Of a stretch of DNA of 64,000 bases, positions 1-36,484 are shown piece by piece. The notes under the pieces are model-generated. The model saw only the letters and a list, made by a program, of their open reading frames with translations. It was not told the origin of the DNA and made no database searches. Both the position numbers and the translations under genes were made by a program. The number at the start of each line of letters is the position of its first letter. Position 1 is the first letter of the stretch. Source of the DNA: Cyanidioschyzon merolae (taxonomy: Eukaryota); assembly GCA_000091205.1 (NCBI GenBank), contig AP006499.2; one strand, given 5' to 3'.

Positions 1-457
1 CCAGGCCAAAGATCCAGCAAATCGCTTCTTTGAACGTGCCTATATCCATATGCACGTTCCCGAGGGTGCCACGCCCAAGGACGGACCCTCTGCCGGCTGC
101 ACCATGGTGACGAGTCTGCTCTCGCTGGCGTTGAATCGACCGGTACCCAGCGACTTGGCCATGACTGGTGAGATGACACTCACTGGACGCATTCTGCCGG
201 TTGGCGGCATTCGAGAAAAGGTTGTTGCGGCGAAACGTGCCGGGTTGAAGCGAGTCCTGTTACCCCAGCAGAATATCAGAGACTGGGAAGAACTGCCCGA
301 CTATATTCGTCGGGGCTTGGAGGTCTCGTTTGTCAGCTCCTACGACGACGTCTATCGCATTGCATTTGCCAGTGCTGGTGCCGGTGCCAGTGCCGGTGCT
401 AGTGGACCAGCAGACGCCAACGCAGATGACGCACGAGAAACCACAGCGGTTGCGTGA
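1..457 (+). CDS. Lon protease, C-terminal proteolytic (S16) domain; 5'-partial, continues upstream of window
   Basis: In-frame translation from nt 2 reads ...[31 protein letters not shown]...[39 protein letters not shown]. The PKDGPSAG catalytic-Ser motif and the AMTGE..L.G.VLPVGG...K..AA.RAG.K motif are the classic Lon protease domain. Stop at 455-457; the low-complexity tail does not end in SKL, so a peroxisomal Lon is not indicated. Confidence 0.85.
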
Positions 458-552
458 GCGCGCTCTCGAGGTACGACCAGTGAACGATTGCTGTTCCAGG
501 AGCGTATACACTCCAGAGGCATATGCTGGTCGCTTTACGCCTTAAACAGAAG

Positions 553-607
553 ATGCGACGACGACGACGACGACGACGACTGCTGCTGCTGCTGCTGCTG
601 CTGCTGC
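553..607. repeat. compound microsatellite (GAC)n(TGC)n in the Lon 3' flank
   Basis: gacgacgacgacgacgacgacgac followed by tgctgctgctgctgctgctgctgctgct, read directly. Confidence 0.9.
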
Positions 608-866
608 TATGCATATCGTCCATTCATGCATCGTGCTAGAGAATGCAGTTCGTACGTGAACGCGAGGCGTTGACGCGGGAATTCTTGTTCGTGCTGTGCG
701 TGTGTGTGTGTGTGCGTCACATACACACACACACGCTCGATATTGCATCTGGTCCGGTTCTTGCAATTGTGTAGAATCAGAGGCTAGGGTGGCCACTGCT
801 CTTGAAACGCTTGTTTTCCGTGCCGCCCGGGGATTGCAGCGCATGCCAGACCAACTGCGAAACGAT

Positions 867-3800: not shown

Positions 3801-6800
3801 AAGTACGGTACGAGCAAGGTCAACCGACGACGTAGCACCAGCGGCACCAGCGGCACCAGCGGCAACTGCTGCGTTCAACAAAGACGTGTTCGCAATGCCG
3901 CGAGCATCGCTGCAAGGCTGCCTGCGCGGCAACGGTCCGGTTTTGACGACAACGATATCCTCGAGGTCGGGTGTGGCCTTCTGGTCGGCTCTGAAGAAGC
4001 TCTTCAACGTAGTTTGCTTCTGCGCGCAGGCAAGGTCTCGCAAGCGCCGTCGCAACCAGTCGGGATGCTCAATACGAGGCACCGGATTCGGTACGCCTTG
4101 GCAAGCTGCTGGAATGGAAATGATCCGCTGCACGGTGTTCGCGAGGCGGCCGCGATAATAATCCCAGTCCAGGATTTCGCGGAAATTGTACACGGGCTCC
4201 CGTAACCACTTGCGCAACAAAGCCTGGCGTTGCTCGAGGTCTGCGGAAAAGATCTGCACGGGAATAGCTCGCTCCGTCACTTGCGTTCCCAGAGGATACC
4301 GCGCAATCACGTAGCGACAGGCGAGGCCCTTGTCGCGAACCATGTCCTTGCCCAAGAATTCCTGTATCCGTTTCGCACAGGTTATTGCGCTGCTCTTCTG
4401 GCCAGCTTGTATGTATGCTGCTAGCGGCTTGCTCATATGTGTCTGCTCTGCAACGAGTTCGAGAAGCTCAGCATCACTGAGCAGGCCGCCATTACTGTCG
4501 AGCACATCGAGCCAGAGGTTCGCAGTCTCGCCAACGGCAGCATAGCATTCGGCTAGGGTGCTGCCTTCTAAAAAACGCCCAAAGATCTCACTCTGAAGCA
4601 CCTTGATCAGTTTCAGTTCGCCTCTTCTTTTCAGCTCAAAACCTTTGATTTCGGCGAGACTCCCATCGCGCTGGAATACGGCGTAACGTTTCTTGATGCT
4701 TTTCCCCTCCTCGCGACTGGCGGGGAGTACCATCGCTCGATATGGTCCGTCTATCTCGAAAAAGATACTAAACTCGGAGCGCTGCTTGTATGTTCCCTCG
4801 TCCGGTGACCACTCCTGGTATTGATGGTTCGTATACTGTGCGGCGACTTTGGTGTTGAGAACGGTGCAGAGCAAAGAAATGGAAATCTCTCGACCACTGC
4901 GAGTATGGAGTGTTATGTCGTTCGGAAAGGTAGCTGGGATCGCGCACCATATACCGTCAGTGTCGAGCTCAAGTGGCAAGCCGACGCGCTCGATCCACTC
5001 GCGGGCGAGGCGAATGATACTCGCACCGGTCTGTGTGACAACACCCGCCATTTCCATGGAGTACCAGCGAGCAGCTCTGCGCATGACGTAGCCGTAAAAG
5101 GAGTTCAGGATACACTTGTGCGCGAGTTGCATTGAATCATAGACGATGCACATGTTGCGCGCTTCGATGGAGGCGCCGCCGCTTTCCGCCAGCGCTTTGC
5201 GCCACTGCTTGAGTAGCCGCTTGTATTCGTAGCGACGGTCCCGAAACGCTCGCACGGTGTCTACGTAGAAGGGATTCTCGCGCTGACATATCCAGGCTTC
5301 TCGCGTCTGAACGGTCGGTTCGAGGACTCTTTTGTGGACCTTCATGCAGTACTCCCGTAGTCGTTTCCTGTACATGGCCTCAGCGTCATCATCCGAAACT
5401 TTCTCTCCTTGCCGTCGACGGGCCCGTACGGTCGTCAGGACTGAGGCGCGGATACTCTGCACCTCTCCAATGGTTGCAGGATAGCACTCTCCTCGCCAGA
5501 CCCAGTGCATCTTGCGGCGGCAGTCAGACGTGCCGTTAAAATCACAGGCTGCGCAAGTTTCCCGCGTGACGCAAGCGTGCGGCTGCAACCGGTTCGTCAG
5601 GATAATATTCGGGTACATGGCGCCCACATCCAGGTGGAGAATCAGGGGGCGCTCCTGCAGCAGCGGCTGCTCGGCAAGGCGTTTGAGTCGTTCCGCGAGG
5701 TCTGCCCGCACATTTTCATAGTCCGTAATTTCCTCCAGATGCAAATCCTGTTCACGCTCGATTGCGAACTGAAGGAACTGGTCCAAGTTTTCTTGCAGCT
5801 CCCGAACAGCCGCTGTGTCAATTCTGAATGGGATGGGAAGGTCTGCACGGTAGATACCTGACTGCAGTGCCTCAACATGTCCACCAATGTAGGTCTCATT
5901 GGCGAGCAAGCGGCTTTGAAACGTTCGTTCTGTCGCATTGTTTTTGAACTTGTTTGGAGCTACGATGTTTCTCCGATGGGCCTCACACATCAAGAGGCTT
6001 TCGCAGAGAGTGCCCGAGCCTTTTCGAAGAACATCATCCGGTCCAAATGGCAAAATGTTGCACAACGAAAATATGAAAGGTTGGACATACTTCATATACA
6101 ACTGATAGGTGGCGACTGCATCGGACACCGAGTAGGCAGCGAGTTCCTGAGGCCGTGTCCGCGCAGCTGTTAGCATCTCCTCGGGGTCGAGTTCGTGCGG
6201 TTCGTAACCTAGCAAAGCCCTGGTCACTGCTTTGAGACCACGGGAGCCTTGCGGAAGGTAGCTATCTCGATTCACCCAATGGATGCAATCCATGTGGACT
6301 GCAGCGCGTCCGCGGCATAAGCCTCTTGCTGCCGAGAACGACATTCCGATCTTGTCCAGAATGTTGATGCCTAGACGGCTAGCACGGACATGCACGAAAA
6401 ACCAATCGAAGGCGTCTCCGTTGTACGTTACGTAGACCCGCGGTTGTGCGGCTCGCGCCTCGGCGAAAAAGCGCCGCAGTAGCGATGCTTCATCGGGTTC
6501 GTTGAAGACGACAAAGCTAGATTCAAACTCAGGCTTCGGAGCGTATGTAAACCCGTGGATGTCCTCTGCTATGATCTGGCGATTTACGCCTAGATAGCCT
6601 CGGCCGTCTAACATCCATGAAATCATCATGATTTCATCATCCGCATATGGGTCGGGAAACTTCAGCGGGGCCTTGGTGCACTCGATGTCGTACGCGAGCA
6701 CGGTAGGATTCGCACGCTCGACGAGCTCGGACAAGAGGTGTAATTTTGGAGCAGCCCCTCCCGAGGATAATGAATGTTCCACGCGATACCAATAACCGCA

Positions 6801-7601
6801 GCGAATGTCGCAATCGATGCAGACCCGCGTCACATAGGGGACGTCGTATTCGCGGAGTTCCACGATGTTTTCGTACGGATCTGTTCGACGAATCCGCTGT
6901 GCCGCGCTCGAGAGGGAAGCGGATGCGTCTGTACTGAGATCCCCAGGTATGAGGCTGGGGTTTTGCTTACCATTCGCATAGGACAGCAAATGACTGCGGA
7001 TTCTTACCAAATCATCGGTTGTAAACGTTTCCACACGAAGGAACAAACGTCGGGCTCGCGTCGCCAAATGATTGAGCATATCCAGGTCCTCGAGTTCGGC
7101 CCGATGAATCCCACTGAGCACATCGCTGAAATCCCGTTTCAGCGCCGACTCTACATCAGTCTCCTTTCCTGGTGTACATCCCACATAGAAATAAGGCCTA
7201 TAACACAGCGTCACACGAAAGTCGCCACCACCTTCATCCCCGGAAAGGAAGTAACAATCCAATGCGCTCACTTGGCGGCCACTCGCTGGGTCATGTACGG
7301 CTGCAACGGCCACATTTAGCAACCATCCGATCCTTTCTGGTGCTCGAAAACCGTCCAGAACCGGGGGCAATGGGAAAAATCCAGCCATCCGATCCCGAGC
7401 ATCCAGCGCAGCTCGCGAGTCTCTTTCTACCTGCGTGTCGTGCGCAGGCAACGTCCGCACGTCCACTTCAGCGTCTTCATCTTCAGCCCCAGAGGAAAGT
7501 TGTTCCTCATCAGGGTCAAGATACCCGTCCAGTGCCATAGGTAAGCACAGTCCCTGGCGCTCTCTAGTCGTTCGCAACGACGGGGCGCGGGAAACGCACA
7601 C
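867..7601 (-). CDS. POLE: DNA polymerase epsilon catalytic subunit (family B polymerase), 2244-aa uninterrupted ORF
   Basis: Exonuclease motif ...VLAYDIECTKAPLKFPDP... Polymerase motifs ...HLDVGAMYPNII..., ...NSFYGYVMRRAARWYSMEMAGVVTQTGASIIRLAREWIERVG...LELDTDGIWC... C-terminal Cys-rich zinc-finger region (CDRCGTAQGRLLSDQCECSGSC). The size and domain order match Pol epsilon. The true start may be the internal Met of MALDGYLDPDEE near 7538. Confidence 0.9.
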   Translation of the reverse strand: MCVSRAPSLRTTRERQGLCLPMALDGYLDPDEEQLSSGAEDEDAEVDVRTLPAHDTQVERDSRAALDARDRMAGFFPLPPVLDGFRAPERIGWLLNVAVAAVHDPASGRQVSALDCYFLSGDEGGGDFRVTLCYRPYFYVGCTPGKETDVESALKRDFSDVLSGIHRAELEDLDMLNHLATRARRLFLRVETFTTDDLVRIRSHLLSYANGKQNPSLIPGDLSTDASASLSSAAQRIRRTDPYENIVELREYDVPYVTRVCIDCDIRCGYWYRVEHSLSSGGAAPKLHLLSELVERANPTVLAYDIECTKAPLKFPDPYADDEIMMISWMLDGRGYLGVNRQIIAEDIHGFTYAPKPEFESSFVVFNEPDEASLLRRFFAEARAAQPRVYVTYNGDAFDWFFVHVRASRLGINILDKIGMSFSAARGLCRGRAAVHMDCIHWVNRDSYLPQGSRGLKAVTRALLGYEPHELDPEEMLTAARTRPQELAAYSVSDAVATYQLYMKYVQPFIFSLCNILPFGPDDVLRKGSGTLCESLLMCEAHRRNIVAPNKFKNNATERTFQSRLLANETYIGGHVEALQSGIYRADLPIPFRIDTAAVRELQENLDQFLQFAIEREQDLHLEEITDYENVRADLAERLKRLAEQPLLQERPLILHLDVGAMYPNIILTNRLQPHACVTRETCAACDFNGTSDCRRKMHWVWRGECYPATIGEVQSIRASVLTTVRARRRQGEKVSDDDAEAMYRKRLREYCMKVHKRVLEPTVQTREAWICQRENPFYVDTVRAFRDRRYEYKRLLKQWRKALAESGGASIEARNMCIVYDSMQLAHKCILNSFYGYVMRRAARWYSMEMAGVVTQTGASIIRLAREWIERVGLPLELDTDGIWCAIPATFPNDITLHTRSGREISISLLCTVLNTKVAAQYTNHQYQEWSPDEGTYKQRSEFSIFFEIDGPYRAMVLPASREEGKSIKKRYAVFQRDGSLAEIKGFELKRRGELKLIKVLQSEIFGRFLEGSTLAECYAAVGETANLWLDVLDSNGGLLSDAELLELVAEQTHMSKPLAAYIQAGQKSSAITCAKRIQEFLGKDMVRDKGLACRYVIARYPLGTQVTERAIPVQIFSADLEQRQALLRKWLREPVYNFREILDWDYYRGRLANTVQRIISIPAACQGVPNPVPRIEHPDWLRRRLRDLACAQKQTTLKSFFRADQKATPDLEDIVVVKTGPLPRRQPCSDARGIANTSLLNAAVAAGAAGAAGATSSVDLARTVLETVSTSLKWTAAGTSVGFAHSAQEQVTERDASGSRLAPFRAGVQQVVQPGRCRPHSDAAARGEPPSLRPISYQQWLEAVAKPQWRLWVRQRRARRSAAAHPAGLRCRLSGLVLEHADLVEPLLVLGIRETGTFQTCRVWFQTSRGRVLSLPVHVPHELWLLYRRLPPDALGQPIETSRNRAWCSDELAVHTLTVRDASVSEAQLTTMARDALCLHAGYLVGLYGVQVSPLLLAVASLGIVCVLKPDAAKQTLRALQLQGIALTDLDSVEKRKPADFASPSWIIVCGSHAKDRSGRGIWVIFSPDRIILILVGSFRSDAETRSTLMRLRHESSVHGDGSLQTLGNALNQTEIIHAQDWKRGLRLLGLTLANRFPGGARPPLLFLQTAVPVALMRRRVPALNNYPLAVVPHVAADCSYQPTGWEAPAMQRTLQRVTALCAQLPLRFQLSDLYGVPIGNLSGDLVAETLDVAVARALLQRGWPLDWLHRGDSLALDVDTTSDAETWPQVSVPGAYSGICIDLEIQDLPLVAILEADTLYAMDRSQAPSGSLLVQVLRPLVQTWVGLEANGDQSAALLTSHLHRWIVRGLAGRTSRMLCAELLHLIRKTFHHLMETLAEMNASVIHATPFRLMLCTHRRQLSEAKAYCRFLLESCRTRPVLRRLIFAPVLRYIRAAFWHDSDHYWAWTMETTPVQTEAEAPTTTTTTTTTTTTTEAGAIPNGTANGNVALSYRLEYSWRDAEHWSAPARKQFAALAQGLLQHLALAGQEGQGRAPHVTAAGTVGARAAPAALTPLAADQIFFLVKQWSLDREPQAAAQDAHWLFRLLLLYRPWQEALLGVEHAVFRFLKCSPFAYKAKSLDASHRVIVLDPIVCSRCFAVNVAQLASSQTTEALSTRSCRICACPLSEAQLRYRVAGRLSALLQTYLVQDGLCDRCGTAQGRLLSDQCECSGSCTTSRWETCTTSRALQSLFAFWNPTPCT
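1671..1710. repeat. (GTT)n(GTC)n microsatellite inside the POLE coding region; it encodes a poly-Thr tract on the minus strand
   Basis: gttgttgttgttgttgttgtcgtcgtcgtcgtcgtc, which corresponds to ...APTTTTTTTTTTTTTEAG... in the Pol epsilon ORF. Confidence 0.85.
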
Positions 7602-8832
7602 GTCTCACAAGGCCTCGAGCGCAGTGCGCTCTCGAAGTTTCCCAAGCGATGTAGTGCAGCTTCCTCCTCAGAAGCTTCGAAGCGCGCACGGCATCAAAAC
7701 ACACGCGCCACTGGCCCCCGGAAGAGCTGCAACGATTGTCCAGCCGCCTCCGTCCAGCTCTCCCAAAGTCGCCTCACGTTCCGAAGCTGCCAGGCTTGGC
7801 AAAGATACGAGAGGCACCTTTGCGACGAGAGTTCCGCGTTACCCTGTCTCGTCACAAGATGAATCAGTTGTTCCCTACTTGCACTCACGCCTCACACACG
7901 GCCTCGAAAGAACACCAATAAGCACCGCAACTAGAGCGCTTCCTATGCACGCATACTCTTCGTGGAGCGCGGAAGCGTGTCTCCGGTGCACGCATACGTT
8001 CCCGCGACGACACGCATCGCCCCGCCGCAGAGACACGTATGCATTCCAGGTAGAAGGTGTCAGACAAAGCGCGCCGCCGTCCACTGTGCGCGAATTTTTC
8101 GCGCGCTTTTTCGCTGTCGCCTCCAGACACGATTTTGAGTTTGGCACAGGGATCGGGCGATTGCGTGCCCGGGGTGTTGCGACGCGCGAGTTCTCAGTGG
8201 ATAGTGCGATATCCCGCATGGTCATGATGGCCGGCACACCGGCACCGGTGTAGCTCGGTTCGATCAAACAACTGATCTTTCGATAAATAAGACGACAAGC
8301 GAATCAACAGTAGGGTCATTCGTGCTGCTGTCTAGCGTAAGCGAAATACCCCGGGGAATGCCTTATTAGAGAGCGCTGGTGCAAGCGCACCGGACGGTCC
8401 ATGAATGCGAGCATCGCGAAAAAGAGATCTCGTTGCTGAGACCGCGAGCACAACCACACGCGTGCTGCTTACATACGTTCTCTGGGATTCTTCCGAGCGA
8501 CCTGCCTCTTCTGTGCAGAGCCATTTGATACTGTCCGCAGCATTACTGAAGGCGCTAATACCATGCTTCAGAAGCACAGCTTCCCGCCGAGATGCAGAGC
8601 GTTCATCCTGGAATGGTCGCCGGCTTCCCGGTGTAACGTTACTGGGTCGATAATTCAGAAAACAAACATATCCAGCGTGACGCCGGCGACAGCAGCACAG
8701 GAGGCGAGGAGAACATGTTGCAATCCGCACGGGAAACGCTCGTCTGTTGCTGTGTCTCTTTTTGGCACATTTCTTTGGGAATTCACCAACTGCATGACGA
8801 GAAAGGCGACGACTTTCTCGATACACCCATGC

Positions 8833-10196
8833 CAAAATAAAATGGAATGGGTCCAGTTAGCTAACTCGGTCACCAAAACGCTAGCATTCCGCTCTCCTTC
8901 TATCTATTTTCATCAACATCAGCCTGTGCGGGCTTTGAGTGCGACTGATTCCTGTCCCTCTCGCTGATCACTGGGCTTACAAATGCCGATGTCTGCATTC
9001 GCGTCAGCCGCGCTGCAGCAGTCGAGATACGGTGATGCCAGCGTTCGAGTCCGGCGTTCGCTGTTTCTGGTTCATCCGCAAGCACTGCATCCACAAGCGG
9101 TCGTTACGATCCGTGCGTTGCTGGCCATTTGGAGCCCACGTCTCTGGAGCTTCGGTGCGGCTGCCGCAGCGATGACGCCTGACTGCGTTCAGGTGCTTCC
9201 ATGGGTCTGACGCCACACACGTGCTTCTTCGAGCACCGCCTCGTGGCACGTGAACGCGCGCGTCATCGCTCCTTGCATGCCACTGACCGCTGCAAAAGGC
9301 TGCCTTGGATGCCGTACCCAAAGAGCACGGACTTGTTCTGGGCGATCGCCTTGGCGAGCACGCTATCGACTGCGAATGCAAGCGACCGCTGCCCCGTTCG
9401 ACAGAGGATTTGCGGTAAGCGACGTCGTTCGGGATCAGGTGTGTACCGGGGGCGGAATCCAGACTGGAGCGCACGCCCAGCAATGTCGATCGGTCTGCGC
9501 TCCCTTCTTCGTGCACAGCGGTGACACGCGCTCTGCTGGAAGCGATCGCTACGATGCCTGACGTCCGACTCCAGGGCCCTTTGTAATGCAAACAAGGGAG
9601 ACGAGCACTTGTGGGCGTATTTTCGCATGAGAGGTATGTTGCTGACGATGTTGCATGGTGTGTTGTCGATGCCCACAGAGGGAGAGGGCAGGATTTGTCT
9701 CTGGAGTGAAATCGATGATTTGACGTAACGCGTTCAGAGAGGGTTCGGTATGCGCTTGAGACGAAGCCTCACAGGCTCGCCGTCGACTTCTCCTTCACTC
9801 GCGGAGGCGGCGGCCCGAATCGCCCCGCCCGCGAGTCGCCTCGCAACGGACGGATCGGGAGCTTGGAGAACGCGCGATCGCAGGATGCTGTTCGTACGGG
9901 AAGCGGAAGAGCAGAGGCTCGCACGCGTACAGCGGGTAACGAAAGCGGATACTGGACAAACCATTCTGGATTGCGTCGCGAATGGTCTTGCTTCTAGTCA
10001 CGTAACGAATTCCTGCTATGAAAGTGGTAGGAACTACTCCGAGGGTTATCACCGAAAATCCTAAAAGTGCATGCAAATCCCTGAGCCCCAATCGCTGCAC
10101 GTGGAATGTCGATGCTATGCTTCTGAATAAAAAACTCGGTGAAAATCACGAGGCAGGAACAGAGCAAACAATTCAGTGTTCCATTTTATAATCTAA
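8833..10196. repeat. Left copy of a 1.36 kb near-identical inverted repeat (GC-rich, no convincing coding)
   Basis: Reverse complement of 17278-18632. The six-frame ORFs are mirrored with only a few substitutions (9795..10100- equals 17373..17678+ except TTFIAG/TAFIAG and LLFRFPY/LLFCFPY). Boundaries were read from where the flanks diverge. Confidence 0.85.
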
Positions 10197-10602
10197 AAGA
10201 GGTTAAGGAAAGTAGCACCAATTGACAGGCAGTCATCGCAGCTGGGATGCTGCACCAGCCGCTACGAAGAGCGCAGCGAGCATGTCTTTGTCCTGCATTG
10301 ACGACAAGTTCTGTTAGAGTCCGGGACGCAGCAGCAGCAACAGCAGCAGTTCTGCAAAAGCGTGCAGTGTCCTTGACGATGAGCTCGCTGCGCTCACAAA
10401 ACGCAGCTCGCGGACACTAGCAGGTGTGAGAAGGTCGATCCTGTGAACCCGCTAGCGACTTCGAGCGCCTCGGTCGTTGCAGCAGCCGCAGAGGCAACCG
10501 TTATTGACCCTTTGGGACCAGAGTGACCCGAGTTTGTTTCTTCTGGTGCAAGTTGCAGCCTAGACGGAGTGGAAACGCGAAAGGATTTCTTCTTTTGGCG
10601 AG

Positions 10603-11457
10603 ATGAGTGCAGCGCCGCCCTATGTGCGTGCAAGTGGGCGTAGAACCAGTGACTCTGTTGTGGACGCCAGCAGAGCAGACACAGCTTCAACAGTGAGCGC
10701 CAACCGTCGTTTGCAGACGCTCCTCGATCACTGGATTAGACGGGGCTGTGTCACCGAGGTAAGTGGCCCGCGAGGTGTCGGAAAAACTCACCTTGCGCTG
10801 GCATGTGCATGTCGCGCCATCCGAGACAACGCTGAGGTTATCATTCTGGATACAGAAGGTGGTATGACTTCGGACCGGCTCCAGCGCATAGAGCCTTCTG
10901 TAGCGTCTCGAATGCACCGTATACAGTGCTTCCGTCCTAGCTCGATGACAGAAGTATTGGCGCTGGCTTACTGCATGGATGCAGGTGTAATCGATACAAG
11001 TCAGGTCGCTTTAGTTATTGTAGACACCCTCGCGTCGGTTGTGCGAAGCGAATTCGTGCCGGATCGATCACTGGCACGACTTGGTCTGCTCCTACAGCGA
11101 CTGGCGCATCAGACGAATGCTATCGTGCTGGTGCTGAACCATGTCAGCTTTCGCATTCTTGAAGCCGAAGGCCCACGTGAAGTTCCGTGTGTCGAGAGAA
11201 TATGGGCATCTCTCTGTACGGTGCGCATACAGCTGATAGGACGGGACCAGTACATTGTATGGAAAGGTCATCAGCTTGATCACGGGGGTGTTGTGTCCGA
11301 ACGCTCGCAAGGAGACGGCTCAGTCGTTGGCTATTCGCAACCGCACAGATCAGGGAACGATACGCAGCCTTTCGATGCATCTGGAGCTGAGAATCCGGCC
11401 TCGCAGCCAAGCGCTCAATCGGATACTTCTTGCAAGGAGCCTAGTGGATCCAATTAG
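10603..11457 (+). CDS. RecA/RAD51-fold ATPase, RAD51-paralog-like (XRCC2/RAD51D-like)
   Basis: Walker A-like VTEVSGPRGVGKTHLALACA. The segment VIILDTEGGMTSDRLQRI resembles RAD51 ...YIDTEGTFRPERL. Walker B-like hydrophobic stretch LALVIVDTLASVVRSEF. The family assignment is tentative. Confidence 0.5.
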   Translation: MSAAPPYVRASGRRTSDSVVDASRADTASTVSANRRLQTLLDHWIRRGCVTEVSGPRGVGKTHLALACACRAIRDNAEVIILDTEGGMTSDRLQRIEPSVASRMHRIQCFRPSSMTEVLALAYCMDAGVIDTSQVALVIVDTLASVVRSEFVPDRSLARLGLLLQRLAHQTNAIVLVLNHVSFRILEAEGPREVPCVERIWASLCTVRIQLIGRDQYIVWKGHQLDHGGVVSERSQGDGSVVGYSQPHRSGNDTQPFDASGAENPASQPSAQSDTSCKEPSGSN

Positions 11458-12812
11458 ACCAGAGTTGCGTCCGATAATAGGCATCGCATCCGTTGCGACA
11501 GCAACGACGTGTTCCGATCGGTTGCTGCATAGATAATAGAGCTTGTTCAGGATTCTTGCCCGGTTGTAATGTCCTTCTGGGGACGACCGGGCGTGCACCT
11601 TCGAGTTTGTCGCGAGCTGGGAAACTGCACTGTGCGATTGATTGCACTGCACGTACACCTCTCGGGATACACGAAAAGAATGTGAAAGCTTCGTATGGAG
11701 GCGCATTTGCGCAGAACCGAAAAGTGCGCTCCACCGTATTCGGTCAACGATGCGGGATGAATCCGTCTCATGATAGCTGGCGAAATCTTTCTGCCCCTTT
11801 TTAGCCGGGTGGTTGTTCAGCGAACACTTGTGTTTGCGTCGAAAAAGTGGGAGCGCGCATCCTTGCACGAGCGCTTTTGGGTATCGGATATGTGCATTTG
11901 CGCACCCGTGTCCGTATACGTATCTGTATCTGAATCTGGGGGCGCGCCTGGACCAGTGCCTGTGTACGTGACTGTAGATGCATCGATGCAAAAATGCATC
12001 TACATCTTTGCGCATTCGGATACCGGGACCTAGAAATGTGTGTGTATATATAGAGGAGCCCATCTAGGAGCCTCTGAATTCGTGCATAGTTTCATTCAAT
12101 GCCCCGTTCGTGCCCAGCGACATTGCAGTGCAATGGAGAAGCTTTTTCAAGGTGGCTATTTCTGGGACAATTCTGTCTTCAAATTCTGATTGGCATTCGC
12201 ATGCTTCCAGATCTTGTCGAAAATCGCTGCTAGAGTTTCGCACACCCCAAACTGTACATCAGATGCGCTCAGTATAGCCATTTTGAGAATCCTAATTGGC
12301 AATCGCGCTTGATGCACAGGGCCAAGGAACGAGATGGAGTCGACCACGCGAACGCCCCTTGCAAAGTAAAACCCTTCTGTGCGCTGATTGGACTCATTCA
12401 CGATCAGGAACAACAGATTCAAGGAAGGTTTCCGTGCTCGTGCACTGTATGTCCGGCAGTGTGTTGTCGTGCGGGATTGTTTGCTGTGACGTGAGAGACT
12501 CGCTCAATTCTAGTCCCGAACGCAAGGCCAATAGGGCCTGGCATGGCTCGCGTTCGTCGGCCACCATTGCACGCTTATCTGAGAGTATGATGGAAAACAT
12601 TTCACGCGATCGTGGCTTCATTCGTATGCGGAGTTCCGACCACTCATCTACGATATAGTTCTGCTCCAGCTAAAAGCGGCGGTGGTCCTGTGTCTCACAG
12701 GAAACCAAAATCCACTTGCATCCCTTTGTGCACGACAGGCGCCCATGTCACTGGAATACTTTGCTGTCCAGGTCGCTGCAGCCTTCGCCACAGCGCGTGG
12801 GGTTTTTTCGCT

Positions 12813-14978
12813 TCACGCGGCAGCAGCCTGACCTCTTTTGCGCGGGTCACTCGCTGCGTACATGATACCGTCTTGGACAGTGCCGCGCTGCACCGGCTCG
12901 TTTGAATGCAGAGCAAATAGCGGCAAACCAGCATGGGGTCGCACGACAGCCTGCACACAGCCAACCATTTCTGGTGCAATACTCTCATGGTCTTGGCTTC
13001 CCTCAATTTCGTGACCGACACGACGCATGTATTGGCACATCTGAGTCCAAATACCGCTATTCTTTTCCTGTGCAGATCGAACTCCTCCGAGCTCGCATTT
13101 TTGACCAACCGCTTCCATCCAGAGAACATTCGGTAGCAGCTGATGGTGTACGCGTGGCATAGAAATGGCCTCTACCAGGCCATCAGCAAAGTCGAGCACA
13201 TTGATCAGCACCTGCAGCGTCGATGAAATGATTCGGGGCCCACCGGATCCGCCAACAACAAGCACGGTACGTCCGTTGCGTACGACAATTGTAGGTGACA
13301 TCGAGGAAAGTGGTCGCTTTCCAGGCACGGGAAAATTTGGCTCTGAGGGTGATATATCGAAGGCATTCGGATGCCCGGCCACGGAAAAGTCGTCAATCTC
13401 GTTGTTGAAGACAATGCCTGTCGAGCGACTTCGAATCATGGAGCCAAATTCAGTATTGATGGTGGACGTGAGCGCGACAGCATTGCCTTGTGCGTCAAGA
13501 ACGCTCAAATGGGTAGTGCCGTGGTCATCGACTCCGCCGATAGTCGAATGAATACGCTCGGCGTCAAAGTAATAGTCCGCAGGATGCGTTTGCAGGGTAT
13601 CCAGAGTTTCGCGCAGACGCGCGGCTGCCGCTTTGTTCACCATGTAGTCGCTGACGTGAACTGCTGCTTCAGGCACAAAGTCCGGATCTCCTAATTGCGA
13701 ACGGCTCGCAAAAGCGTATTTCAGGGCTTCGGTCACAAGCTGCAGACTCTCATTGGAATGTCCACGAGATGGCATATTGTAGCCCTCGAGGATGTTCAGC
13801 GCCATAGCGATCGCCGGTCCACCGGAGCTCGGAAGTGAAGAACCGAGAATCTCAAAGCCCCTGTAGAAGCTTTGCAGAGGCTGTCTCCGTTTCGGTTGAT
13901 ATCCACTGATGTCCTCGGCAGTCATTAGTCCACCTGCCTCCTGAATTTCTTTCGCCAGAGTCGAGGCCGAGTGATTGTACAAGTAATCAGCGCCGTGAAG
14001 CGCAATCTGCGTCAGGAGTTCTGCCAGCGCCGTCTGGACGAGCGTCTCGTTTTCCGCCAAGACACGAGAACCGCTGGGGTCACAGAACACTTCACATAAA
14101 GTAGGCGATTTGAGAATTGTTGGAGCATTCTGAGCCAGGCGATATGCGAGCATGGTTCCAACCGTCGCGTTACGAGCGAGAGGGATCACTGGCAACACAA
14201 CATCTCTCCAAGAAAGCTTCCCGTATAGGGCATGCATGAGCTCGAGACCTCGAAGTTCACCAGGAACCGCGATGGAGAGTCCGCCATGGCGCGTACTTTC
14301 CGGGCCCCGTTCGCGTAGAAGCTGGTGCGTTAGGTTCATTGGCGCCGTCTCCCGTGCGTCAATGAAGTCCGTTGACCCGTTCTGCAGCCGAACGAGCGCG
14401 AAGCACCCACCTCCGATTCCAGATGCAAATGGCGACAGAACTCCTTGGCAAAGGGCAGAGGTCACAGCGGCGTCCACGGCGTTTCCGCCCAGTTCCGATA
14501 GAACCTGCAGTCCTAGTTTCGAACAGACGGGGTTGTCCGCTGCAACCGCTCCATATCGCTCACCACGTGCCAAGATGCTTTTGCCAAACGGAGCAAAGTT
14601 TTCTACAAGTGACGCTGCAGTGGTGTCGTCGCCACGAGCGCCTTTGTGGGCATCAGAACCTCCAGCGACAGGGCCTCCCTTTGAATCGTGAGTCGAGTCA
14701 GCCGCCTGAGATGGCGTACTCGTTCCAGCACGCTCATCACTTGGTGGCAAAAAGATCGGGATGCTCAAAACTGCCGCGGCGAACAGTACAAGAAAGAAGA
14801 AGAGTAGCGCATACTTTCGCAGCTCGCGAGGGTCACGCTCGCCTTCCCACCACGAAGGCAACTCGAGCCCTGAGCGAACCAAGAAAGGCTCGCGTTGCTG
14901 TTGGGACTCAACATCCAGAAAAGTCGTCCGTCGATCAATCTGTTTGCGTGGACTCAGAACAGTGATCTGGTCGGTCAT
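12813..14978 (-). CDS. gamma-glutamyltranspeptidase (Ntn hydrolase), type II membrane-anchored
   Basis: ...TSTINTEFGSMIRSRSTGIVFNNEIDDFS... has the catalytic Thr and GGT signature. ...GGSGGPRIISSTLQVLINVL... is also GGT-typical. N-terminal hydrophobic anchor ALLFFFLVLFAAAVLSIPIFL. The start is taken at the Met of MTDQITV, because the longer track ORF (to 15068) runs into an interspersed repeat. Confidence 0.85.
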   Translation of the reverse strand: MTDQITVLSPRKQIDRRTTFLDVESQQQREPFLVRSGLELPSWWEGERDPRELRKYALLFFFLVLFAAAVLSIPIFLPPSDERAGTSTPSQAADSTHDSKGGPVAGGSDAHKGARGDDTTAASLVENFAPFGKSILARGERYGAVAADNPVCSKLGLQVLSELGGNAVDAAVTSALCQGVLSPFASGIGGGCFALVRLQNGSTDFIDARETAPMNLTHQLLRERGPESTRHGGLSIAVPGELRGLELMHALYGKLSWRDVVLPVIPLARNATVGTMLAYRLAQNAPTILKSPTLCEVFCDPSGSRVLAENETLVQTALAELLTQIALHGADYLYNHSASTLAKEIQEAGGLMTAEDISGYQPKRRQPLQSFYRGFEILGSSLPSSGGPAIAMALNILEGYNMPSRGHSNESLQLVTEALKYAFASRSQLGDPDFVPEAAVHVSDYMVNKAAAARLRETLDTLQTHPADYYFDAERIHSTIGGVDDHGTTHLSVLDAQGNAVALTSTINTEFGSMIRSRSTGIVFNNEIDDFSVAGHPNAFDISPSEPNFPVPGKRPLSSMSPTIVVRNGRTVLVVGGSGGPRIISSTLQVLINVLDFADGLVEAISMPRVHHQLLPNVLWMEAVGQKCELGGVRSAQEKNSGIWTQMCQYMRRVGHEIEGSQDHESIAPEMVGCVQAVVRPHAGLPLFALHSNEPVQRGTVQDGIMYAASDPRKRGQAAAA

Positions 14979-15039
14979 CGGGTGTTGCCAGTCCACGCTG
15001 AGCAGGTTCAGAGGCGTGGCGAAGGTTGCAGCGACCGGG

Positions 15040-15330
15040 CAAGAAACCCCTCGATGAGCCCAGCACACGCGTAGCGTTCGCAGCGGCTCACGCCTGAGCG
15101 GATGAGGTACGCATCTCCTTCGTCATTGGGAGTTTCGTTAGGTTTCTTGTTCGTTAAAAAATACTCACGACACGATTCATGTGCATGTATATACGTTTAT
15201 TCCTGATGCTTGTAATGCAACTTTATCGGACTATGGATGGTGAACTGTTTTGGATTGCACTGCTATCGGGCGTTATGGGCTGGCACTGATGACACTACAT
15301 GTTGTTGCCGTACTGTCGTCGTTGTCTAGG
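15040..15330. repeat. Interspersed repeat R2, copy 1 (about 290 bp, non-coding)
   Basis: Aligns with 31020-31300: shared acgcgtagcgttc.cagcg...ggatgaggtacgcatc..., ...acgtttattcctgatgcttgtaatgca..., ...gggctggcactgatgacactacatgttgttgccgtactgtcgtcgttg... Confidence 0.7.
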
Positions 15331-15692
15331 TCATGGTGCCTGCTACTTTCCCCGGATCCGGCGATCTTGGCAGAGATGCAGCGCGCTTTCAGCGTCGATA
15401 TGGACCACGACGTGCGAGCCTTGTACATCACATGGCAGGATCGAGGCACCCGACAAAAGCAGATACTGCATTTTGGTCTACGCTATTGGTGTACTGGCGA
15501 GAGCGTACCCGGAAGGTCGTGGCGCAATCGCCAAACCGTGAAGTGATTCTTACTCCCGCCAGTCATATGCGCCCGGATATTCGTTGGCTACCTGCTGATT
15601 TTTCACATCAAGTAGGAATACTTTGGAACGTACGGATTTTCTCTCTTTCCGTTTATACGTCCAGTGAGGCGGAACAGGTTCACAGCGATGGA

Positions 15693-15769
15693 AGGTAAAA
15701 ATATCTGTCCAATCGCAGACGCCTCCCAACGTCGTTTGACCGGTCGCCTGGTATCGGCTTCAGATTTTC
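15693..15769 (-). ncRNA. Conserved 3' module downstream of the Fanzor-like stop; candidate omega-RNA scaffold remnant (copy A)
   Basis: The reverse complement reads ...gttgggaggcgtctgcgattggacagatattttt. This aligns with the equivalent position in copies B, D, E, G and H. Confidence 0.25.
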
Positions 15770-15995
15770 CTCACATACTGCGCGAAGAGGCTGCCCCATA
15801 AATAAAGTAAGCTCGCCTCAGATCCCCGAGTCTCCTCTTCGGCACCGCACATCGTCTCATATTTGTGGCGGCGTTGATGTCACAGTTGACAAACTCCTTG
15901 CTTTTATTGCATCCGGGCGAAATAACCAAAGCAAGTATTTCTAGAGCTCATGTCCTCTGCGCCACGACAGTCTCGTCATCGTCCCGCTGGGTAAA
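15770..15995 (-). pseudogene. TnpB/Fanzor-like RuvC-III C-terminal remnant (copy A)
   Basis: The minus-strand translation reads ...VFTQRDDDETVVAQRT*... and FVNCDINAATNMRRCAVPKRRLGDLRRAYF. This is the D-x-NAA-x-N motif plus conserved tail; frameshifts and stops are present. Confidence 0.55.
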
Positions 15996-16513
15996 CACCT
16001 TTTCTCAACTTTTCCCCTTCTTCTGCTTCTTCGTCACTTGCTCCTCTTCTCACGATGGTATCGGAGAAGAGAATTTTATTGGTTTTCGTCCAACCCGGTG
16101 ATGATGGCCCTCCGAGATCCTCGAATTATACGCCCATACCATCGCATTTTATTTTTTATTTTGGAACATGAACACCCTTCTTCATGTCCTGAGGTGAAAC
16201 CCCTTCACGGAGGGAGAAGGACTTGCGGAAGACAGACGGAATGTGCCCCGGTGAGTCAAAGTTGTGAAAGCTTGATCAGTTCGCCCAGCGTAGCGTTCAT
16301 TACGTTTCACGGTACGACACATTCCTTCGATGTGTTGAATCACGTAGAGGAAGCATTAATGAAAAGCAGCTCTATCCGGATAGAATCCGCAAAAACTCGA
16401 ACCCAAAGGGCATCATGAAATACCAACTTGTATAGTTGAAGGACGTTACCAGATGTCAGGGAAAAGTCTTCAATGATTCGGCTAATTTGTACATGGTGTT
16501 GTATGAGACTTCT

Positions 16514-16987
16514 CTACGAGCGACGCTGAGGCCGCCATACGAATCCCTTGTAGCTAGACCAGATGATATCCTCGTTCTCTTCGAGTTCGGTCGTATATAA
16601 CATAATCCCTCCCCGCGAACACCCATATATGCGCCAACGGTATCGCCTGAAGGAACCATCATCAACTGAAAAAAGAAACCGACGTCCCTGTGCCTCATAC
16701 CGGTCGTGAGGTACCAGGAACACTTTCTTTGCGATTTCGTTGGAAGATGGACATGCTGTAACTAGTACCTTTTTGGGACTGTATCCCAGTGTTTTCAGGA
16801 CAGGATGAAAAAGCTGGTGAGGTGCAGAGACGCCCGTAGTGGCTACTGTTGTCGCTTCTACCTTCCGGAAGGTGAACGACGGTTCGCTGTCTGCCATTGA
16901 CCGCCAGCATTCTATAAAACTATCGGTTTCTGGCGTAAAGCGCACATACATCTTTCTTTCCACGTTCCTCAACCATCTGAGTGTCAC
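16514..16987 (-). pseudogene. Tc1/mariner-like (DDE_3) transposase remnant (copy A)
   Basis: ...VLKTLGYSPKKVLVTACPSSNEIAKKVFLVPHDRYEAQGRRFLFSVDDGSFRRYRWRIYGCSRGG... follows the Tc1 pattern L..LGY.RKK..P.LS..H...R..FA..H..W....W..V.FSDE..F. The catalytic DE is degenerate, reading DDGSF. Confidence 0.55.
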
Positions 16988-17277
16988 GGTGTGACTGATC
17001 TGAAGGAGAACTGCAGTCTTCCTTGCACTGTTCAGTACAAAGTATACCCTACAGACAATTCATCGACGATCTATAGAGCACACTGCAGAGTTATTTCGAT
17101 CTGCTGCTCTACACCGCATCCGCCGAGAAATAAAATTGAGTTGGAAGACTAATGTAGCCCTTGGGCCAGCGTCCGGCGGATACCGCTGCTTCTTGTACAC
17201 GCTCTTCGGGATGCATGCGGCAGGTACGCATCAACTCTGCATGACATGCATCCGCTTTGAGATCCAAAACCCCCTAT

Positions 17278-18632
17278 TAGATTATAAAGTGGAACACTGA
17301 ATTGTTTGCTCTGTTCCTGCCTCGTGATTTTCACCGAGTTTTTTATTCAGAAGCATAGCATCGACATTCCACGTGCAGCGATTGGGGCTCAGGGATTTGC
17401 ATGCACTTTTAGGATTTTCGGTGATAACCCTCGGAGTAGTTCCTACCGCTTTCATAGCAGGAATTCGTTACGTGACTAGAAGCAAGACCATTCGCGACGC
17501 AATCCAGAATGGTTTGTCCAGTATCCGCTTTCGTTACCCGCTGTACGCGTGCGAGCCTCTGCTCTTCTGCTTCCCTTACGAACAGCATCCTGCAATCGCG
17601 CGTTCTCCAAGCTCCCGATCCGTCCGTTGCGAGGCGACTCGCGGGCGGGGCGATTCGGGCCGCCGCCTCCGCGAGTGAAGGAGAAGTCGACGGCGAGCCT
17701 GTGAGGCTTCGTCTCAAGCGCATACCGAACCCTCTCTGAACGCGTTACGTCAAATCATCGATTTCACTCCAGAGACAAATCCTGCCCTCTCCCTCTGTGG
17801 GCATCGACAACACACCATGCAACATCGTCAGCAACATACCTCTCATGCGAAAATACGCCCACAAGTGCTCGTCTCCCTTGTTTGCATTACAAAGGGCCCT
17901 GGAGTCGGACGTCAGGCATCGTAGCGATCGCTTCCAGCAGAGCGCGTGTCACCGCTGTGCACGAAGAAGGGAGCGCAGACCGATCGACATTGCTGGGCGT
18001 GCGCTCCAGTCTGGATTCCGCCCCCGGTACATACCTGATCCCGAACGACGTCGCTTACCGCAAATCCTCTGTCGAACGGGGCAGCGGTCGCTTGCATTCG
18101 CAGTCGATAGCGTGCTCGCCAAGGCGATCGCCCAGAACAAGTCCGTGCTCTTTGGGTACGGCATCCAAGGCAGCCTTTTGCAGCGGTCAGTGGCATGCAA
18201 GGAGCGATGACGCGCGCGTTCACGTGCCACGAGGCGGTGCTCGAAGGAGCACGTGTGTGGCGTCAGACCCATGGAAGCACCTGAACGCAGTCAGGCGTCA
18301 TCGCTGCGGCAGCCGCACCGAAGCTCCAGAGACGTGGGCTCCAAATGGCCAGCAACGCACGGATCGTAACGACCGCTTGTGGATGCAGTGCTTGCGGATG
18401 AACCAGAAACAGCGAACGCCGGACTCGAACGCTGGCATCACCGTATCTCGACTGCTGCAGCGCGGCTGACGCGAATGCAGACATCGGCATTTGTAAGCCC
18501 AGTGATCAGCGAGAGGGACAGGAATCAGTCGCACTCAAAGCCCGCACAGGCTGATGTTGATGAAAATAGATAGAAGGAGAGCGGAATGCTAGCGTTTTTG
18601 CGACCGAGTTAGCTAACTGGACCCATTCCATT
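17278..18632. repeat. Right copy of the 1.36 kb inverted repeat
   Basis: Reverse complement of 8833-10196 at more than 99% identity by eye. It is also homologous, though diverged, to the direct-repeat units at 36485 and 42863, in the same orientation as those. Confidence 0.85.
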
Positions 18633-19100
18633 CTATTCTGGAATGAATATAAGACGCGCAACGCATTCGCAGAAGACGTACTGCGATGTCTAGCGCCGAA
18701 AATTGTCCAGAGTTCTAGGTGCTTCGCCAAATGCTCCTACAATGCATATCGAAGACTGCCGATTTGTGAGCATTAGGCCTCCTGTGCCATAGAGTGCGCC
18801 TCTCTTCCTCAAAGCAGGTACAGGTATCTCTTCCTCAAGAAATTCCGATCAGAATCACTTAAGAAGAATGCTATCCACATTGCGGCTCACCTGACCTTTT
18901 AAAAACTTCACACAAGAGTGCGCGTCGGTGACCCACATCAGACGCGTACCGATAACTGCAGCCGCTCCTCATGGACCTTGTCCAGGAACGCGTCTCTGCA
19001 GTAAATCAATCGCCTCTGCCGCGTAGCCACGCAGGATCGTTTATCGCGAATTTTTGCTCCTAGGCAGCACTACTCACTCTGTCCAGCAATCACGCGAGTG

Positions 19101-20222
19101 CTACAGACTCTTCCTATCGACGGAGTCCGCTGGAGCGCTGCGCCAAACGTAGAGAATTCTCTCATAAAAGGAAGCGGTGACACATTTCAGATTGTGCCCC
19201 AACCCCGGAAGCCAGCTTGCGGCATAGACGAGCGAATGATCCATATGCTGCCCGAGATGGACTTGAAGTCGCGGTAGCGGCCCCAGGAGATCGACGATCG
19301 CGGCGTGTCCTTGCATGCAGGCCACCAGCAGCGAGGTGCCGCGCACCTCAATACGCCATGGCCCGCCAGGCATCTGCAGCGTTTGCCACGAGCGCCCGAG
19401 CATACGCGTGTCCCAAAAACGCAGCTTTTCATCGAATCCACCGGAAACAAAAACGTGCTCATCCAAGAAGCACGCTCTGGTCACGCCCAGTGCTTCATGT
19501 GCTTGGTAGCTTGATACGCAAGGGTCCTCCTGCGGTCGCAAACGCGAATCCCAAAGGCGTAGGTACCCGTCATCGCCACCGCTCATGATCAGATACTCCT
19601 GCGCTCCGAAGCACGCGAACCAAGCCTCGTGGGCGTGCGCTTGCGTTCGTTCCCAGAGCCAGCTGGGAGAATCCAACGTCGCCAGCGCGATCGCTCCGTC
19701 AGCAAAACTGGTGACGATCTTGCCCTCGCTTGCTCCCGCCCCAAGACAAACCGATAGAGCGATAGCTGGACCGTCTAGATGTTGCTGTACTGTCCAGCCT
19801 GAGGCTCCATCTTGCACTTGCAACGCACGGATCCCGCCGTCAGCTGAGGCTACCACCAGGCTGTTTTCGTTGAACCAGTGCAAGTCGAGGACGCCGAAAT
19901 CCAGCGCTTTCCAGGCTAGTAGCGGCTTGTCTTCGGGAGAAAACTTGATGAGGCCAACACCGCCGATCCGCCTGTTTTCGTGGAGCTCGTACGCCCCGAA
20001 AGCCAGACAGGCGCCCCGCTCTAGGCACCTGGTAGCGACCGCGTCTGGGCAAGATGGCACGGTAATCTTACACCATTCCTCCATGAGGGCCCCGATTTGC
20101 TCTAGCCCCTGTCCCGTAGGACTCAAAACCGGAATTGGATCGACTCCCTCCCCATGCTGAGGCCGGTCACCGAGCAAACCACAAGCACTACAAAAGCGCC
20201 ACCGGGCTGGACGCACTGGCAC
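19101..20222 (-). CDS. DPH7: Diphthamide biosynthesis protein 7 (WD40 protein, WDR85 family)
   Basis: Blockwise match to human DPH7: [15 protein letters not shown] ~ [50 protein letters not shown] ~ [48 protein letters not shown] ~ [23 protein letters not shown] ~ DSLVYGADWS. The start may be the internal Met of MEEWCKIT near 20084. Confidence 0.75.
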   Translation of the reverse strand: [373 protein letters not shown]

Positions 20223-20520
20223 GAGAACGGACTCTGGTCCATCCGAGTGCTGTGGCTGGCACGAGTTACCTGAGGAGGACGCGCACGGTCGGTGGTTCCA
20301 ACGATACTCGCGACCTGGTTAGGAAGCGTCCTAGCAACAGTTAGTTGATTCTCGATACTTGGGTAGCGAGCGCAGCGTCTGCAGTTAGAGTCGCACCGAT
20401 AGGCGAGTTTGTAAGCACCGCGCCTCCAGGGACAGGTGCAAGCACGAACTTGGAGAACCTCTGCAACAGGCGGCGTGTCTGGAACATTTCCTGTTTCTCT
20501 GATAGAAGATTGTTGAGAAC

Positions 20521-21228
20521 TTGTACACTATGAAGAAGCAACTCCGCGTTTTAGATCTGAAACAGCGACGAGCGCGTCTGGCCGAACTAGAGGCTACACT
20601 GCTTGCTCAGAGTGCTACTGAGCAGGAGCACGTCGAATCCCTGTCAGAAGAGCAGGCGGCTGCCGACTTCATCGAGCACTTGGTATGCCTCCGTACACCT
20701 CAGCCCATCATCCTGGAGTCTATTTTGAGCTGCGCGCTGCGCAAGCTGCGAGAACTTGTGATATATGCTTCAGAAACAAACCTTTCCGCCTCGGACCCGG
20801 ATGTGAAGGAGGCCTTGCAAGCTTTCCGGAGGGTCATTGTACTCTGTTTTAGGAGCTCCACCATACACAACTTTCTCACCCGCTCGAACATGGCATGCAT
20901 CGATGAACTTGCGCGGCTTACTGTCTACCGCCTTCGGCAGGAGCTGGCTACACATCAGTCGTTACACATCGCTGCGCTGCAGTGTGCGCAGGAAGTGTTT
21001 TCGTCCTGCAACCCAACCATCGATGCTTTTTCAGCGCCACAGGAAGATGAAAAGCTTGCTCATCTTCGAGCCATCCTTCAGGTCTGGGATTCTCCCGAAC
21101 TCGAGACAGACGCAGCCCGCATCGCTGCCTGGATGAACCTGGGCGGGCCGGTCGCACACGCGCTCGCCTCCGCGTGGGCGCGTAGCGCGCCAGCACCAGC
21201 GGCAACTGCGAAACGCTGTTCCTCCTAA
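20521..21228 (+). CDS. Hypothetical protein (235 aa, helical, no recognisable domain)
   Basis: Clean ORF with ordinary composition, sitting between DPH7 and the pantothenate kinase gene. I recognise no motif in it. Confidence 0.35.
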   Translation: MYTMKKQLRVLDLKQRRARLAELEATLLAQSATEQEHVESLSEEQAAADFIEHLVCLRTPQPIILESILSCALRKLRELVIYASETNLSASDPDVKEALQAFRRVIVLCFRSSTIHNFLTRSNMACIDELARLTVYRLRQELATHQSLHIAALQCAQEVFSSCNPTIDAFSAPQEDEKLAHLRAILQVWDSPELETDAARIAAWMNLGGPVAHALASAWARSAPAPAATAKRCSS

Positions 21229-35713: not shown

Positions 35714-35874
35714 AGAAGGCTCATCCAACAGCACCAACCATTCCGTCGAATCATTGAAGACTTTTCCCTCACGTCTCGCGACGTTTTTCCACTGAAAAAC
35801 GTGGTATTTCAGCATTACCGTCGCGGTCGAGTTTTTGCCGATTCTGTCGGGGTAGAGTTGGTTTTCATTTCTCC

Positions 35875-36443: not shown

Positions 36444-36484
36444 AAAAGTCGTGGAATGTTGTTCGTTATACTGGAAAGAATACT

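Follow-up and report, generated by a model that had tools for sequence, protein, structure and literature searches.

Inverted 1.4 kb arms around a RecA/Rad51-like and a gamma-glutamyltranspeptidase gene in Cyanidioschyzon merolae DNA: putative relics of a Tc1/mariner-like transposon, probably gene-converted and involved in a ~21 kb inversion

We analyzed a stretch of 64,000 nucleotides from Cyanidioschyzon merolae (assembly GCA_000091205.1, contig AP006499.2; this whole stretch is referred to as the window) for the nature of a pair of inverted, near-identical sequences of ~1.4 kb, the 'arms', that bracket a segment with a RecA/Rad51-like ATPase gene and a gamma-glutamyltranspeptidase (GGT) gene. 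Judged from their sequence, the arms are dead copies of a transposon of the Tc1/mariner superfamily (Pfam DDE_3) and belong to a family of elements of ~1.39 kb, here called the A family, of which the window holds at least six copies. We consider it probable that old, dead copies of this family have been gene-converted and have mediated an inversion of ~21 kb. On this reading the arms are old inactivated A-family copies, lying in opposite orientation around 7.05 kb of host DNA, and encode nothing functional.

The inverted repeat is real and beyond chance. blastn aligned positions 8828-10202 with 18645-17271 over 1375 nt at 98.98% identity (14 mismatches, 0 gaps), and a repeat search recovered this pair as the only inverted one within 7000-21000, with a spacer of 7068 nt between the arm cores. 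The arm coordinates of a preliminary description of the same sequence (8833-10196 and 17278-18632) were right to within 5-13 nt of the measured core, and the mirrored six-frame open reading frames (ORFs) that it reported for the two arms were borne out. The limits of the elements were taken from a family model that was built on three lineages (nhmmer), which share 62-65% nucleotide identity. For comparison we used contigs L001-L022 from public metagenome and read-set assemblies (JGI, ENA, Logan), located by exact-protein look-ups; the same genome was found in many of these assemblies at 99.2-99.9% identity. The layout of the repeat is as follows:

8823-10210, minus strand: left arm, a full-length dead A-family element that covers family model positions 2-1401 (nhmmer); core 8828-10202.
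17263-18650, plus strand: right arm, a second full-length dead A-family copy, inverted with respect to the left arm; core 17271-18645.
10211-17262, no strand assigned: internal segment M, bracketed by the arms and colinear in contigs L007 and L008 at 99.2% identity.
9004-9591, minus strand: ORF of 195 aa in the left arm, mirrored at 17882-18469 on the plus strand, with a near-identical public ORF (P0123).

Because the arms alone stay below detection by Pfam, their assignment rests on nucleotide homology to another member of the family, E47 (47148-48604), and on consensus and profile comparisons. One frame of E47 matched DDE_3 directly (E=0.0067). A majority consensus of the three lineages, which was used to strip lineage-specific damage, matched DDE_3 with E=3.2e-7 and 30.7 bits, compared to a curated cut-off of 28.6. 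This consensus reads ...LLVSIDETPF...VIAAIAS...VTAVHE...LIMDNIAFHKS...SPRTSP..., and its segments LVSIDETPF, LIMDNIAFHKS and SPRTSP are found at Tc1-like spacing. Of the catalytic triad the consensus shows IDET and MDN, and the residue 35 positions past the second aspartate (D) is a serine and not a glutamate; it lies in SPRTSPRS, the equivalent of SPxLNPIE. In the arms themselves the second motif is PND. The 195-aa ORF (...VTAVHEEGS...LIPNDVAYRKSS...SPRTSP...) is read as what is left of the C-terminal half of the catalytic core of the transposase, and the transposase sense corresponds to the minus strand in the left arm and to the plus strand in the right arm. A search profile made solely from exact window translations, and run against 1.84 billion representative proteins, recovered 97 proteins: the window ORFs P0122 and P0123, many short decayed relatives, and intact Tc1/IS630-type transposases, among them P0208 (DDE_3 3e-29, plus HTH_33) and P0203 (DDE_3 4e-18). 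In addition, hhalign aligned the A family in register with the second family of DDE_3 relics in the window (E=0.0028).

Several other searches returned little. The concatenated six-frame translation of the arm had no match in a set of 5.8 billion proteins, a weak negative because that index misses the near-identical pol epsilon and eIF2D-like proteins and evidently most ORFs of this genome. Rfam at gathering thresholds and a tRNA scan gave no match in the window; with E-values up to 5, Rfam yielded one sub-threshold chance match to a CRISPR repeat in an arm and zero in E47. Neither the consensus nor the profile found a match among PDB sequences, an exact 39-mer of the arm had no match in GTDB genomes, and a tblastn search with a Sleeping Beauty transposase was uninformative. 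We also observed a plus-strand ORF, antisense to the transposase, of 190-192 aa in the metagenome copies of the arm (L006 6648-7226), which in the window (8983-9561) is split by a stop codon; in public data, gene callers have entered such spurious ORFs, antisense to the transposon relic, as proteins.

Within the window, blastn, tblastx and nhmmer identified three colinear full-length relatives of the arms and one partial relative:

36481-37748, plus strand: C36, an A-family copy without the last ~100 model positions (the 5' end of the transposase), which abuts an element of a second family, the T family (35117-36389; see below).
42754-44147, plus strand: D43, a full-length A-family copy and direct repeat of C36, with an ORF of 282 aa that corresponds to P0122.
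47148-48604 (main element 47206-48604), minus strand: E47, a solitary A-family copy with 62-65% identity to the others.
24204-25280, plus strand: partial A-family copy, interrupted, spanning model positions 604-1378.

The partial copy consists of 24204-24384 and 24684-25280, with ~300 nt of unrelated sequence in the middle, and E47 carries an additional 5' terminal motif (CATGTCAGAATAAAATTGAAGAGGTCC...) at 47148-47198, ~55 nt upstream of its main start. C36 and D43 form the other near-identical repeat of the window, a direct pair (36484-37748 and 42861-44146) of ~98-99% identity, which brackets a gene for a NIF-type phosphatase (38067-39902) and a Spo11/Top6A gene (41067-42368). Their identity stops exactly where the ~100 missing model positions of C36 begin. 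If the two recombined by crossover, Spo11 would be lost or duplicated.

All A-family copies are decayed: each contains 4-17 stops in each of the six frames (8-15 per frame in the left arm), the indels are mostly 1-2 nt long and not multiples of three, the substitutions among the copies show no three-base periodicity, and a six-frame check of every copy found no intact A-family transposase ORF in the window. A live gene family, or a gene with introns, was considered and dropped because no reading frame stands out in periodicity, indel lengths or per-frame tblastx. Stop-codon reassignment, considered for an arm frame with 7 TGA and 2 TAA codons, was rejected because the 2244-aa pol epsilon and other genes read through in the standard code. 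The preliminary description had denied the arms any convincing coding capacity; this holds as far as an intact ORF is concerned, but it overlooks that the arms are transposase relics. The arms contain no internal direct, inverted or tandem sub-repeats. As to the termini, the left arm has a subterminal perfect inverted match of 11 nt (ATAAAATGGAA, 8837-8847 and 10179-10189), and nothing convincing was found in the other copies. A TA directly precedes the 5' terminus (CAYSCATG) in 3 of 6 copies (the left arm, E47 and a third arm-like copy that is found in contig L008), and is lacking in C36 and D43; the 3' terminus is too imprecise to score.

The distribution of differences between the arms is informative with respect to the cause of their likeness. 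Between the limits of the elements, 22 positions distinguish the two arms, 16 of which fall in the terminal 80 nt (20%) and 6 in the inner 1308 nt (0.46%). The terminal mismatch density is ~40-fold above that of the interior (binomial P ~4e-12 for the terminal 5% at each side, post hoc). The third copy, recovered from the public contigs, is ~99% identical to the arms over a core that corresponds to 8864-10187 in left-arm coordinates; over its first ~40 nt it has diverged strongly and contains indels, yet a fit to the family model is retained from position 4 onwards, and at the 3' end it falls ~20 nt short. Some of the variants follow the genome: at positions 9369, 9375, 9700 and 9900 both window arms have A, A, T and G, every metagenome copy (from two different loci) has G, T and A at 9369, 9375 and 9900, and at 9700 all metagenome copies have A, except the one in L014, which has T. 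The interior divergence amounts to 0.46% between the arms and to 1.0-1.4% between the arms and the metagenome copies, for unique flanks of the same sources that diverge by 0.23-0.76%. Only close neighbours are homogenised, namely the arm trio and the pair C36/D43 (6.4 kb apart); E47, which lies 3 kb from D43, has only 62% identity.

A core that is nearly identical between ends that have diverged, combined with variants that go with the genome and not with the locus, argues for non-allelic gene conversion, and not for a young duplication. We therefore hold it quite likely that gene conversion among old paralogues accounts for the identity of the arms. A break in one copy would be repaired from a neighbouring copy, so that the interior would be overwritten repeatedly, while the last tens of bases would be free to diverge; at least three copies within ~25 kb would take part, the two arms and a third one just left of the window. 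The preliminary description had offered two causes for the identity, of which ongoing gene conversion is the better one in view of the end-clustered mismatches, the third copy with its diverged termini and the genome-sorted variants. A simple recent duplication, its other suggestion, finds no support, given diverged termini beside an alike core and variants that sort by genome.

Part of these observations would also be expected if a non-autonomous A-family element, mobilised in trans, had recently hopped locally and inserted three times within ~25 kb, which would make the copies young. Cut-and-paste transposons are known to yield near-identical neighbouring copies, and the near-identical copies are indeed close neighbours (the arm trio; C36/D43). 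The near-identity ends within 5-8 nt of the model-defined element limits, a TA stands before the 5' terminus CAYSCATG of three copies (left arm, E47 and the copy in L008), and among the many relatives that the profile search found in public data some are intact. However, young copies should differ uniformly, whereas the mismatches here are ~40-fold denser at the termini and the 5' end of the third copy is diverged, with indels, beside a core that is 99% identical. Moreover, an inverted end match of 11 nt would make a poor substrate for a Tc1-type transposase, the inner junctions and the adjacent T-family element are fixed in strains that are 0.7% apart in unique DNA, the variants sort by genome, and an intact A-family member is absent from the window. 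On balance, recent local transposition appears unlikely, although it is the first of the alternatives to be considered besides gene conversion between old copies.

The repeat was then compared with the public contigs, for which the following flanking genes are relevant:

867-7601, minus strand: gene for the catalytic subunit of DNA polymerase epsilon (pol epsilon), a single ORF of 2244 codons; left flank, 'A'.
19101-20222, minus strand: WD40-repeat gene; right flank, 'B'.
21265-22893, plus strand: gene with a Fumble domain (pantothenate-kinase family, PanK), beyond the WD40 gene.

The majority of the contigs (L001-L005, L013 and L016-L022) are 99.5-99.8% identical to the window right of the repeat and break 43-200 nt inside the right arm, as expected of short-read assemblies that run into a real repeat. 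The outer junction between the right arm and the WD40 side was reproduced in L001-L006 and L013-L022. L007 and L008 contain the whole internal segment at 99.2% identity and enter an arm at both ends, which reproduces both inner junctions. In total, three of the four arm junctions were confirmed in independent contigs. Among more distant relatives, the only other GGT contigs (~50% amino acid identity, with introns) lacked the neighbouring genes and the repeat family.

Three contigs from three assemblies and two pipelines, L006 (JGI), L014 and L015 (Logan), cross the whole arm next to the WD40 gene. At the far side of the arm they do not contain M but ~4 kb of DNA that is absent from the window and encodes DFP and Lon protease, and the junction reads: pol epsilon 3' end, Lon, DFP, arm, WD40, PanK. 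Beyond Lon, L006 continues into the reverse complement of window positions 1-2067, which is the 3' end of pol epsilon; the DFP/Lon DNA corresponds to the DNA immediately left of the window, in inverted orientation. A second alternative junction is found in L008, where a gene that the window lacks and that encodes an eIF2D/MCT-1-like protein (Pre-PUA 3.7e-19, PUA) is followed by an arm and then by the Tc1-side end of M, after which the contig continues through M to the inner end of the left arm.

The two alternative junctions can be connected by a single event. In the notation Y - arm0 - X - A - armL - M - armR - B for the window genome, in which arm0 and Y would lie to the left of the window, recombination of arm0 with the inverted armR by a single crossover would generate Y - arm - M' - armL' - A' - X' - arm - B, and both observed junctions would be the reciprocal products of one such inversion. 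The inverted piece would measure ~21 kb and include pol epsilon and Lon, and M would stay bracketed by inverted arms in either case. No gene would be interrupted, because both breakpoints fall in transposon relics. More generally, if break repair that involves two inverted copies ended in a crossover, the intervening DNA would flip, and the 7.1 kb between the arms could be inverted in this way, too. A crossover between arm0 and armL, which form a direct pair, would delete pol epsilon and its products would therefore not be expected to survive. To judge from the metagenome contigs, the difference in junctions is rather likely a true inversion between strains. The recombination-mediated inversion that was envisaged in the preliminary description thus has indirect support from two reciprocal junctions, but its partners would be the right arm and the third copy (~21 kb) and not the two arms.

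The alternative junctions also bear on the question whether the window itself could be an assembly artefact, with a mis-joined or duplicated repeat, as every contig that crosses the right arm joins the WD40 side to DFP/Lon instead of M. Against this stand the independent reproduction of both inner junctions and of the right outer junction, and the 14 sites at which the arms differ, so that they are not one sequence used twice. The window furthermore runs unbroken through five repeats of 1.3 kb and 98-99% identity, unlike short-read assemblies, from which we infer that long-read data were used and that the window arrangement is probably real. As M is bracketed by inverted arms in either arrangement, we regard an artefact as improbable. 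Equally improbable is that the arms are an inverted duplication that arose as a by-product of an inversion with staggered breaks, or by another segmental duplication. Inverted duplications are known at inversion breakpoints (compare the Anopheles 2Rj paper, PMC1952172), and at this locus, too, arrangements differ with breakpoints at the arms. Yet the duplicated unit is a complete transposon copy at both ends, and a third copy, scattered family members and termini more diverged than the core likewise speak against such an origin.

The anatomy of the locus, with inverted copies of one transposon around a cargo, also fits a composite (Tn5/Tn10-like) or foldback transposon, in which the arms and the 7.1 kb would move as a unit with the Rad51-like and GGT genes as captured host genes. 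A TA is present at both outer ends, though a TA is too short to be informative. Nevertheless, no second copy of the unit, empty site or unit-level target duplication was found in 22 related contigs, and the alternative junctions swap the flank of one arm at a point inside the arm, which indicates recombination instead of transposition. In addition, the two copies are dead, with degenerate termini, and other members of the A family are arranged as a direct pair or stand alone. Composites such as Tn5 and Tn10 share with this locus the two inverted DDE-transposon copies around unrelated genes; unlike these, it has a eukaryotic nuclear setting and lacks functional termini and a functional transposase of its own, although a transposase might be encoded elsewhere in the genome. 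What remains of the resemblance to a composite transposon that was noted earlier is the layout and the fact that both arms are transposon copies; dead copies, degenerate termini and the absence of any sign of unit movement speak against the rest. The foldback element that was proposed in the same breath can be discarded, as the arms lack tandem or inverted sub-repeats and 7 kb of genes lie between them. Altogether, a mobile unit of either kind seems extremely improbable. In yeast and bacteria the fragility that is associated with inverted repeats drops steeply with spacers beyond tens to hundreds of bases, and by this analogy a hairpin or cruciform with a spacer of 7 kb would be implausible.

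A number of points weigh against gene conversion and inversion between dead copies as the explanation of the locus. As to the ancestry of the arms, these alone gave no DDE_3 match in Pfam, even after the correction of one frameshift. With regard to the conversion, the mismatch-clustering test was devised after the pattern had been seen, and the identity (8828-10202) stops almost exactly at the ends of the element (8823-10210), as transposition likewise predicts. Metagenome assemblies of a three-copy repeat may be mosaics, and the arm in L008, an older scaffold, contains Ns; both the sorting of variants by genome and the divergence at the third copy's 5' end are weakened thereby. With regard to the inversion, the third copy is known from public contigs; in the window's own genome its place would be beyond the limits of the window, so that it was not observed there. 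No contig was found that carries the window linkage of M, right arm and WD40 through a whole arm, and six exact-protein look-ups for contigs across the left outer junction (the pol epsilon side) or with the internal genes came back empty. The fourth junction that the model predicts, Y with X across an arm, falls outside the window and was not seen.

The segment between the arms contains two genes and one element of the T family:

10603-11457, plus strand: RecA/Rad51-like ATPase gene, 284 aa (Pfam AAA_25 2.8e-12, Rad51 1.7e-7).
12813-15068, minus strand: GGT gene (PF01019 1.8e-142; first ATG at 14978).
15804-17103, minus strand: decayed Tc1-like element with a Fanzor/TnpB-like tail, described earlier as Tc1/Fanzor copy A; T family, distinct from the family of the arms.

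These contents were already given in the preliminary description and agree with the Pfam matches; the proximity of the Tc1/Fanzor element to the right arm was also correctly noted, as the decayed element ends at 17103, ~168 nt from the arm. The local order is: pol epsilon, left arm, RecA/Rad51-like gene, GGT, Tc1-like element, right arm, WD40, Fumble. A stretch of 270 nt just upstream of the GGT start (15060-15322) has 74% identity to 31029-31290. The window represents nuclear DNA of an intron-poor eukaryote (~54% G+C). Its genes are long uninterrupted ORFs, which include genes for a class II DAHP synthase and a squalene/phytoene synthase. The best identity of the N-terminal 450 residues of pol epsilon among 5.8 billion proteins was 40-45%, so that no close sequenced relative is present in that set.

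The T family is represented by four copies (15804-17103; 35117-36389, probably extending to ~36447; 55204-56491; and 62229-63506) with ~69-75% identity. Its consensus matched DDE_3 with 3.4e-10, and the translation ends with a TnpB/Fanzor-type motif (...KEFVNRDFNAAINIRRCAV...; ...NRDFNAAINI). The public protein P0126 (342 aa) has the same Fanzor-like tail joined to a transposase remnant that resembles the arm family. We considered a fixed composite of an A-family and a T-family element and rejected it, as the two adjacent pairs differ in relative orientation and abut via different T ends.

A-family copies have a near-constant length (1379-1400 nt) despite 35-40% divergence and occupy promoter-side intergenic positions, and the near-identical pairs bracket genes of the recombination machinery in the window (the Rad51-like ATPase and Spo11). 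The relics might be retained as recombination-active cassettes, whose flipping or conversion would be a selected way to vary gene arrangement or expression; we consider this highly improbable.

The locus can be related to several known systems. Dispersed repeats evolve in concert by ectopic gene conversion, as in yeast Ty elements and the palindrome arms of sex chromosomes. Here too, paralogues are closer than orthologues, identity decays toward the boundaries and neighbours are homogenised; a difference is that the comparison covers no more than a handful of copies from two or three strain backgrounds. With the Tc1/mariner elements (IS630-Tc1-mariner) the A family shares the DDE_3 match, the DE(T/S) and DNxxxH-type motifs, the size of ~1.4 kb, the TA at several 5' termini and the many decayed copies. 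Unlike these, it has no intact ORF, next to nothing is left of its inverted termini (11 nt in the arms), its consensus does not retain the third catalytic residue, and the arms alone stay below DDE_3 detection. In the Galileo inversions of Drosophila buzzatii (PMC2775673), inverted transposon copies are likewise found at the breakpoints, with flanks exchanged within the element and genes left intact. Galileo was recently active and is of the foldback type, whereas here long-dead Tc1-like relics would be involved, the inversion is deduced from metagenome contigs and not from genotyped individuals, and no exchanged target-site duplications were scored. Likewise, the human polymorphic inversions (PMC3961182) involve inverted repeats of kb scale and 98-99% identity around a few to tens of kb, non-allelic homologous recombination and homogenised arms, with recurrence and gene conversion; organism and scale differ, and here strains were compared via contigs and not within one population.

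The process itself is thus known and no new mechanism is involved. Specific for this case are the long-dead Tc1-like substrates, the restriction of homogenisation to neighbours and the setting in a compact, intron-poor eukaryote. Some 12% of the window belongs to a single, unrecognised Tc1-like family that is missed by similarity searches with the arms alone. Structural variants in uncultured eukaryotes could be read from the way in which public metagenome contigs join across a repeat. What appeared to be a palindromic gene cassette would become a worked example of dead transposon copies that shape a compact protist genome: neighbouring relics would stay recombination-competent via gene conversion and may invert tens of kb with essential genes such as those for pol epsilon and Lon.

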